Counted from the stretch's first letter, positions 4,540 through 4,742 are shown. The stretch: 32,000 nt of DNA from Nitratidesulfovibrio vulgaris str. Hildenborough (GCF_000195755.1 NC_002937.3:720001-752000); one strand, 5' to 3'. Notes: generated by a model not told the origin, from the letters alone. Numbers and translations: made by a program.

Positions 4540-4716
4540 ATGTTAAATGCGCGCCATCCTTGCGGATGACGCGCATTCCATGCCGCCTAGGCACAGTTTG
4601 CTGCCGTTCTGGCAGCGACGGACATGTTTGTCATGTCCGCACCCTGTCGCCGTCTACTTTGTCCGGAGTGCACGGCGACAGGGTTCTGGGCTCCGACCGA
4701 CCTGCCCAGTATGTTG
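4540..4716 (-). ncRNA. Candidate structured small RNA (strand and ends inferred)
   Basis: Five consecutive perfect or near-perfect stems fill the interval:
- CTGGGC/GCCCAG (4686..4709)
- CCCTGTCGCCGT/ACGGCGACAGGG, 12 bp (4642..4683)
- CGGACATG/CATGTCCG (4619..4639)
- GCTGCC/GGCAGC (4600..4616)
- an 11-bp GC-rich stem with a GCAA loop (4549..4574), followed on the minus strand by AUUUAACAUUACA

The interval lies downstream of a sigma-54-like element at 4742..4727. The ORFs here have poor third-position GC for this genome. Confidence 0.4.
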
Positions 4717-4726
4717 GCATCTATTT

Positions 4727-4742
4727 ACCAAGAAGCGTGCCA
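4727..4742 (-). promoter_or_regulatory. Near-consensus sigma-54 promoter (-24 TGGCAC, -12 TTGG)
   Basis: The minus strand reads TGGCACGCTTCTTGGT. The spacing is correct and the -24 element is perfect, but the nearly invariant -12 GC is GG. It sits 168 nt downstream of the sigma-54 activator stop and 84-120 nt downstream of a strong palindrome. Confidence 0.35.

Follow-up and report, generated by a model that had tools for sequence, protein, structure and literature searches.

A predicted non-coding RNA with a conserved fold downstream of the sigma-54 activator gene DVU0653 in Nitratidesulfovibrio vulgaris Hildenborough

Activator genes followed by their own RNAs

Qrr small RNAs (sRNAs) are encoded beside the gene of their regulator, and GlmY and GlmZ, under GlrR, are trans-acting sRNAs that depend on sigma-54 and an enhancer-binding protein (EBP). 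Qrr RNAs are ~100 nt long, depend on Hfq and carry a conserved single-stranded seed. We compared these and other described systems with a locus in a stretch of 32,000 nt from Nitratidesulfovibrio vulgaris str. Hildenborough (DvH; GCF_000195755.1, NC_002937.3:720001-752000), hereafter the window, in which all positions are counted from the first nucleotide. There, the gap between the convergent genes cheV and DVU0653 holds a predicted non-coding RNA (ncRNA), which we call the DVU0653 RNA, behind a sigma-54 type promoter. Qrr1, the RNA controlled by LuxO, is documented as a sigma-54- and EBP-dependent sRNA acting in trans (PMC10162802). Rfam matches the DVU0653 RNA to none of Qrr, GlmY and GlmZ, and its conserved bases lie in apical loops, whereas the Qrr seed is single-stranded.

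In Pseudomonas and Azotobacter, the gene for CrcZ likewise directly follows cbrB, which encodes the response-regulator EBP of this sRNA, and it has an intergenic RpoN promoter (PMC6292655). A cbrB-crcZ read-through transcript exists as well (PMC6292655), and, as we saw no terminator between the DVU0653 stop codon and the promoter of the RNA, read-through from activator gene to RNA could occur here too. CrcZ sequesters Hfq/Crc (PMC6292655), whereas the DVU0653 RNA has no such repeated motif, no Rfam match and a different host lineage. Pxr of Myxococcus, like Desulfovibrio a former 'deltaproteobacterium', is also encoded downstream of a sigma-54-dependent response-regulator gene, nla19, with a sigma-54 promoter, and it resembles the DVU0653 RNA in its multiple stem-loops, which are conserved on the 5' side and variable at the 3' one (PMC5568312, PMC5684412). 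However, Pxr is 108 nt long with three stem-loops, showed no sequence or covariance-model similarity to the DVU0653 RNA, and serves developmental gating, which has no Desulfovibrio counterpart.

A system of the same design, with a response-regulator EBP gene, palindromic sites, a sigma-54 promoter and a structured RNA, lies in the same 32-kb window. This is the ncRNA downstream of DVU0679 (Dv_sRNA2; ~30330-30516, minus strand), whose expression has been confirmed by tiling arrays (PMC3333781). Two GTGCG-N4-CGCAC palindromes (~30608-30641) come right after the stop codon of this second REC-AAA+-HTH_8 activator, and the promoter, TGGCACACCATTTGCT, is perfect, with GC at -12 where the DVU0653 RNA promoter has GG. 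An initial annotation of the window, made from its sequence, had seen the DVU0653 locus mirrored at 30337..30641 and proposed a recurring pairing of an EBP with its own downstream sRNA. The design does recur, and the second copy is the published DVU0679 ncRNA, but the two RNAs are not homologous: their sequences are unrelated, a covariance model built on the DVU0653 RNA does not match the DVU0679 ncRNA, and the loops of the DVU0679 ncRNA are C-rich, compared with GGUC and GGACAAAGU in the DVU0653 RNA. Pairing between these two sigma-54 ncRNAs was no better than that of shuffles and was rejected.

The D. vulgaris Hildenborough regulome includes four ncRNAs that depend on sigma-54, among them the DVU0653 RNA. 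The existence of this RNA, as a predicted target of sigma-54 and DVU0653, is already known, as are its promoter and regulator. The supplements of Kazakov et al. 2015 give an 'ncRNA downstream of DVU0653' with the promoter CTTGGCACGCTTCTTGGTA at 724743 (PMC4641369), DVU0653 sites TtTCtGtGATtaCGGAat at 724892 and TaTCCGCaATCGCGGAat at 724862 (PMC4641369 Additional file 4), and an 'ncRNA downstream of DVU0679' with the promoter CATGGCACACCATTTGCTA at 750515 (PMC4641369); orthologous sites are listed too for Miyazaki F and G20 (PMC4641369). We located all four sequences in the window, at 4744, 4893, 4863 and 30516, and a single offset, 719,999, fits them all, by which the window spans chromosome positions 720,000-751,999; the published promoter-to-promoter distance (724743 to 750515) is the same as that in the window, 25,772 bp. 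The published ncRNA is the same locus, with the same promoter and the same two sites, and earlier papers label it 'posttranscriptional regulation' (PMC3333781, PMC4641369). Additional file 2 of PMC4641369 prints, next to 'DVU0679', a DNA-binding-domain sequence that forms the C-terminus of DVU0653 (window 4910-6595), and, next to 'DVU0744', one that forms the C-terminus of DVU0679 (window 30641-31948); the labels appear to be displaced by one row, whether in the file itself or through text extraction.

Binding of DVU0653 at the gap in vitro is also published. A blind DNA-affinity-purification microarray experiment (DAP-chip) with DVU0653 gave peaks at 724049-724218 and 724259-725239 (Rajeev et al. 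2011; PMC3333781), the second of which covers the activator sites, and the same authors remarked on the missing annotation downstream of DVU0653 (PMC3333781). In the literature searched, we found no mention of DVU0653 beyond these two papers and no experiment on the rpoN- or activator-dependence of the ncRNA promoter. As the existence, promoter and regulator of the RNA are published, the significance of our analysis is limited. In the published accounts of the ncRNA we found no description of its ends, fold, covariation or invariant loops, of a third activator site, or of a -12 base that is never C, so these features are new as far as we could find. Together they give an RNA of ~180 nt with a covariation-supported fold, two invariant loop motifs open to mutation and a systematic absence of C at -12, and the 13 homologues give enough sequences for building a covariance model and for predicting targets comparatively.

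Promoter and activator sites in the cheV-DVU0653 gap

We think it likely that the gap contains a stand-alone ncRNA gene of ~170-180 nt on the minus strand, directly downstream of DVU0653, whose product probably acts by base-pairing in trans. The gap spans 4300..4909 (610 bp). On one side is cheV (3349-4299, plus strand), which encodes the CheW-REC protein CheV; on the other, convergent with it, is DVU0653 (4910..6595, minus strand), which encodes a response regulator with a REC domain, an AAA+ domain bearing GAFTGA and a C-terminal helix-turn-helix (HTH); the protein shares 100% identity with one from Nitratidesulfovibrio vulgaris. The predicted RNA occupies 4539..4718 (minus strand); promoter geometry places its 5' end at ~4718-4715, and its 3' end follows a terminal hairpin. 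The comparison that carries this reading covers 13 distinct orthologous loci, the window included, from four or more Desulfovibrionaceae lineages. Full-length orthologues of the activator (49-94% identity) occur in Nitratidesulfovibrio, 'Desulfovibrio' subterraneus and mangrovi, Oleidesulfovibrio and Halodesulfovibrio. All 13 loci keep the same order on the activator's strand: activator gene, binding sites, GC-poor spacer, promoter, RNA and terminal hairpin. Thus, the arrangement that the initial annotation had read from one sequence, with an activator gene, a dyad, an A/T spacer, a -24/-12 element and a minus-strand structured RNA, is a property of every orthologous locus, and each element that it had listed was found where it had placed it. 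The RNA-like segment is 154-186 nt long among the homologues and ends in a GC-rich hairpin, and the gap between the EBP and CheV genes ranges from 390 to 970 bp, free of coding content.

Open reading frames (ORFs) can be drawn in the DvH gap on both strands, one of 70 aa at 4624..4836(+), which runs through the hairpins as had been noted from the outset, and one of 59 aa at 4654..4833(-). These frames, and the fact that both strands fold well, would suit a small-protein gene, or just a group of terminators or palindromic repeats lying where two genes converge, with no functional RNA. Such an explanation is, in our judgment, extremely improbable. The gap has no convincing ORF, as first described: there is no Pfam match (none for the 70-aa frame in particular) and, among the homologous loci compared, no ORF is conserved on either strand. 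Sense-strand ORFs are different in each homologue or absent, and close relatives have lost start codons and acquired stops and non-triplet indels; the 70-aa frame is interrupted by a stop and gaps in L006, the locus of a 78%-identity relative. The hairpin sequences are unique within the window, and a dispersed repeat or repetitive extragenic palindromic (REP) element was rejected on that account. Finally, neither coding nor repeats would account for a promoter and activator sites conserved across genera, or for stems that are replaced wholesale with their pairing retained. Public gene calls exist over the RNA gene in L006 (4679-5386, minus strand, 235 aa) and in the activator-CheV gap of L010 (4980-5126, minus strand, 48 aa); neither has a Pfam match, and both probably arose spuriously because GC-rich DNA was called as an ORF although it is non-coding.

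The promoter of the ncRNA gene, TGGCACGCTTCTTGGT (4742..4727, minus strand), is the one published as CTTGGCACGCTTCTTGGTA and differs from TGGCAC-N5-TTGCW by one mismatch, at the -12 C. TGGCAC, with GG at -24/-25, lies at 4742-4737(-) and is kept across the 13 loci, two of which read TGGCAT; the -12 element reads TTGGT, with correct spacing, the -13 G present and the -12 C changed to G. One-mismatch matches to the sigma-54 consensus number four in 32 kb, against 1.3 expected by chance, so that a single such match is not beyond chance and the reality of the promoter rests on its conservation. Seven of the 13 loci share exactly this promoter sequence, and the other six have one that is nearly the same. 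Base -12 is G in nine loci, A in three, T in one and C in none. That C never occurs at this position argues that the GG, which the initial annotation had recorded beside a perfect -24 element, is a conserved property of the promoter across genera and not a defect or decay; if so, a base other than C at -12 may tune basal or activated expression. Two further one-mismatch matches in the window are TGGCACCGTGAGTGCA (19170-19185, plus strand), ~660 bp upstream of a PAS-MCP gene (19843-21429), and TGGCGCATCTGTTGCA (28688-28703, minus strand).

Upstream of the promoter, by 85-150 bp, three TCCG-N6-CGGA-type sites cluster at 4825-4893. Site A, TTTCTGTGATTACGGAAT (4876..4893, minus strand), has one mismatch to this motif and is identical to the published site at 724892, and site B, TATCCGCAATCGCGGAAT (4846..4863, minus strand), is identical to that at 724862 and is the sole perfect match of the window; loose matches number ~24, the chance expectation. 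The third, site C (ATTCCTCTATTGCGGATT, 4825..4842, minus strand), is degenerate and putative, being our inference since it is missing from the published site list. Sites B and C together form the strong palindrome at 4826..4862, which is real as first described but is not a single dyad, consisting of two adjacent sites of a set of three. Each of the 13 loci has two or three palindromes of this type, 85-200 bp upstream of the promoter, and where relatives have three, their spacing is similar to that in DvH. The top-ranked DVU0653 DAP-chip peak (genome 724049-724218) falls elsewhere, at window 4050-4219 inside the 3' end of cheV, where there is no TCCG-N6-CGGA-like site; array resolution, or binding of another type, may be the cause.

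Between the sites and the promoter lies a spacer (4743..4824, minus strand) with a guanine-cytosine (GC) content below the local average. GC content is 0.53 in the 70 bp upstream of the promoter, compared with 0.64 in the window, and across the 13 loci it is 0.24-0.53 in the spacers and 0.48-0.72 in the loci, a drop of 10-38 points. The spacer had been called bendable and A/T-rich. Its low GC content is a kept feature, but the strict consensus for integration host factor (IHF), WATCAR-N4-TTR, has no match in the spacer of any of the 13 loci.

Fold and covariation of the RNA

On the strand of the RNA, the ViennaRNA fold of 4725..4530(-) has six hairpins and a free energy of -102.9 kcal/mol. Dinucleotide shuffles gave -62.3 +/- 4.5 kcal/mol (z = -9.1), and none of 200 was as good. 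The initial annotation had described five consecutive perfect hairpins, for which it proposed thermodynamic folding; every stem that it named is present, but the count is six, the extra one being an imperfect hairpin. H1 (CTGGGC/GCCCAG, 4709-4704/4691-4686; all hairpins are on the minus strand) carries the apical loop AGGUCGGUCGGA, with an invariant GGUC at 4698-4695. H2 is a stem of 12-13 bp (4684-4672/4653-4641) with a large apical loop, in which GGACAAAGU is invariant at 4664-4656. H3 (GCGGACAUG/CAUGUCCGU, 4640-4632/4626-4618) and H4 (GCUGCC/GGCAGC, 4616-4611/4605-4600) are variable modules; unrelated hairpins replace H3 in other clades, and H4 is absent from L006. The imperfect H5 (CUGUGCC/GGCAUGG, ~4596-4578) is kept in L006 as GTGCCTAGGCGGCAC and is not formed in an alternative fold of the RNA. 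The last is a GC-rich hairpin of 14-15 bp with a GCAA loop (4578-4564/4559-4545), followed by AUUUAACAUU; it is a probable intrinsic terminator with a weak U-tract, and it shows compensatory changes between DvH and L006.

As expected of any palindrome-rich DNA, the plus strand also folds strongly (z = -7.7), so that the strand assignment rests on the promoter and on the terminators of relatives. U-tracts of 5-8 follow the homologous terminal hairpin in L012, L135, L136 and L138, the corresponding tail is UUUUCUUUU in L013, and the Halodesulfovibrio terminal hairpin has the tail GCGCUACAGCUUGCUGUAGCGCGAUUUUUUUU. These clear U-tracts in lower-GC relatives, all on the activator's strand, fix the transcribed strand. 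They also bear on another explanation, in which the main role of the promoter is to send antisense transcripts into the convergent cheV and so to control that gene in cis, by read-through antisense RNA or transcriptional interference, with the hairpins incidental. cheV is indeed convergent and adjacent in 11 of the 13 loci, the U-tract of the DvH terminator is weak, and the top DVU0653 DAP-chip peak lies in the 3' end of cheV. However, strong U-tract terminators end the RNA in L012, L013, L135, L136 and L138, O. alaskensis has another gene between the RNA and cheV, and Halodesulfovibrio carries the RNA with no cheV adjacent. Moreover, ~240 bp of non-conserved spacer separate the end of the RNA from the cheV stop codon, and interference would need neither covarying stems nor invariant loops. 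Together these points make an antisense role quite improbable.

Each homologue alone folds into a 5' H1 and a long H2, followed by two or three variable hairpins and the terminator. In a MAFFT alignment the only invariant blocks lie in two loops, with GGUC for H1 and GGACAA.G for H2, while the stems are wholly different between clades; H1, for instance, reads CUGGGC, CGGGCAU, AGGACA, GGGUGU, CAGGAG or GAAGGCA. In a hand structural alignment of the 5' domain, which was fitted to the structure and is hence biased in its favour, 99.1% of cells pair, and both partners have changed in 19 of 20 pairs (6 of 7 in H1, 13 of 13 in H2), with a covariation score of 1.04 compared with 0.22 for shuffles. 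When the partners were slid by 1-3 columns as a control, pairing fell to 30-44%. We checked this independently by aligning four sequences with MAFFT and passing the untouched result to RNAalifold, which returned five hairpins with 6 compensatory pairs. Thus, the conservation anticipated for the hairpins is present in the H1 and H2 helices, which are maintained by compensatory change across genera, and H3 and H4 vary between clades. As judged from these alignments, the fold of the RNA is under selection.

A covariance model built from the 5' domain recovers all the orthologues and in the window matches only 4641-4722(-), at 38.8 bits; the next-best match, at 14 bits, led us to reject a paralogue of the RNA in the window. 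Metagenome matches to TGGCACGNTWNTTGGTA were likewise rejected as homologues, being 120 chance matches in none of which the loop motif occurs; the covariance model recovered none of the 80 such loci scanned. A contig search with the activator protein returned only distant EBPs from Bacillus and Verrucomicrobia. At the gathering threshold, Rfam 15, whose families include Qrr, CrcZ, Pxr, GlmY/GlmZ and CsrB/RsmY/RsmZ, gives no family on the RNA; across the window and 10 related loci, the one match at this level is a cobalamin riboswitch, located away from the RNA. Relaxing the threshold to E <= 10 brought in, over the RNA of the window and of relatives, nothing but junk or terminator-like matches.

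Invariant loops and possible function

The invariant loops are mostly unpaired, with probabilities of 0.7-1.0 compared with an RNA-wide mean of 0.33. For the GGUC motif the unpaired probability is 0.82-1.0 in 11 of the 13 homologues, and the sole variation in the 9-mer GGACAAAGU is A to G, which would keep pairing with U. The homologue in Halodesulfovibrio marinisediminis (L136, 4907-5070) has CUUUGUC in a downstream hairpin, the exact complement of the loop motif GACAAAG, so that its loop is predicted to be mostly paired (unpaired probability 0.26); on the modelled fold, this internal complement could be an alternative structure that masks the seed within the molecule. No internal complement of the CUUUGUC type was seen in the other homologues. 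The D. subterraneus/mangrovi clade (L012, L135, L137, L138) has a conserved third hairpin with the G-rich loop GGGGGGGAUACCC, which appears to resemble, and in part to complement, the loop GGGAUACCCCCCC of the DVU0679 RNA.

CsrA and RsmE recognize the motif A(N)GGA. The RNA could in principle be a decoy that sequesters a protein and pairs with no mRNA, as CsrB, RsmY and RsmZ do for CsrA and CrcZ for Hfq/Crc. Its architecture of multiple hairpins is what a decoy would have, every homologue shows one GGA in an exposed hairpin loop, several clades have a second GGAC in another loop, and cbrB-crcZ, the nearest architectural analogue, produces a sponge (PMC6292655). Yet GGA is not enriched, with 2-8 per RNA compared with 2.6-5.0 in shuffles, and unpaired GGAs number 0-4 per RNA, mostly one or two, of which only one is conserved; the second GGAC is not. 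Conservation runs 3' of the GGA (CAAAGU) and the bases 5' of it vary, unlike A(N)GGA recognition, and no covariance model of CsrB, RsmY/Z or CrcZ matches. We therefore rejected a CsrA-type sponge, with GGA at the shuffle expectation and a single conserved exposed GGA, and we regard a protein decoy in general as unlikely.

We favor base-pairing through the loops because these hold the only conserved bases, because they are predicted to be unpaired, and because GGACAAAGU varies only from A to G. The RNA would act in trans, with the exposed apical loops YGGUC (H1) and GGACAAAGU (H2) as likely seeds, and the variable hairpins on the 3' side would have a stabilising role. The sequence complementary to GGACAAAGU is ACUUUGUCC, and the 32-kb window has no anti-loop site except the RNA's own opposite strand. 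Neighbouring genes, among them cheV and those for the EBP, kinase, U32 peptidase and superoxide dismutase (SOD), were rejected as targets, since duplexes between the loops and their translation-initiation regions had background energies and inconsistent positions. The persistence of cheV as a neighbour, and of superoxide dismutase in some species, suggests that the RNA may target chemotaxis, motility or redox functions.

Upstream of the RNA, phosphorylated DVU0653 would oligomerise on the three sites, and the assembly would loop over the GC-poor spacer and open the sigma-54 closed complex. The partner and sensor of DVU0653 is presumably a hybrid histidine kinase containing a PAS domain, of the kind encoded beside the activator in relatives: in the more distant ones (L012, L013, L135, L136, L137 and L138), a PAS-HATPase_c-REC hybrid kinase gene stands directly upstream of the activator, as in D. 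subterraneus, D. mangrovi, O. alaskensis and Halodesulfovibrio. In the Nitratidesulfovibrio loci that place is taken by a U32 peptidase gene and a PHP-domain gene, so the cognate kinase of DVU0653 is not adjacent, and no cognate hybrid kinase was found in the window. A 528-aa ORF at 19843-21429 was rejected for this role, as it is a PAS-MCP protein and not the relatives' hybrid kinase. The RNA may be the sole transcriptional target of DVU0653, and may be the main or only output of its two-component system.

Several points weigh against an RNA gene of this kind. In a published figure legend, expression of an sRNA from the DVU0652-DVU0653 interval is posed as a question (PMC3333781), and 5'-RNA-seq of D. 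alaskensis G20 names two sigma-54 sRNA starts, neither of them at the orthologous Dde_3097; the RNA may be silent under standard growth. In DvH, the promoter lacks the sigma-54 consensus C at -12, the terminator has a strong stem but a poor U-tract, AUUUAACAUU, and a simple terminator scan gave no call there. No complementary site for the loops was found in the window or neighbouring genes. These points are set against the conserved promoter, the conserved sites and the covarying helices, and a trans-acting ncRNA remains the explanation that we prefer. A more specific proposal, which we hold tentatively and consider possible rather than probable, is that the RNA founds an undescribed sRNA family limited to some Desulfovibrionaceae, with two loop seeds and a sigma-54 promoter subclass that avoids C at -12, and is the dedicated, possibly sole, output of a PAS-hybrid-kinase/EBP system.

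The cobalamin riboswitch matched by Rfam (RF00174, 105.5 bits) lies at window 1631-1811 (minus strand), upstream of a CbiK cobalt chelatase gene (601-1590, minus strand). The same riboswitch-CbiK arrangement stands downstream of the RNA locus in the Halodesulfovibrio sequence L136 (6328-6504, plus strand).

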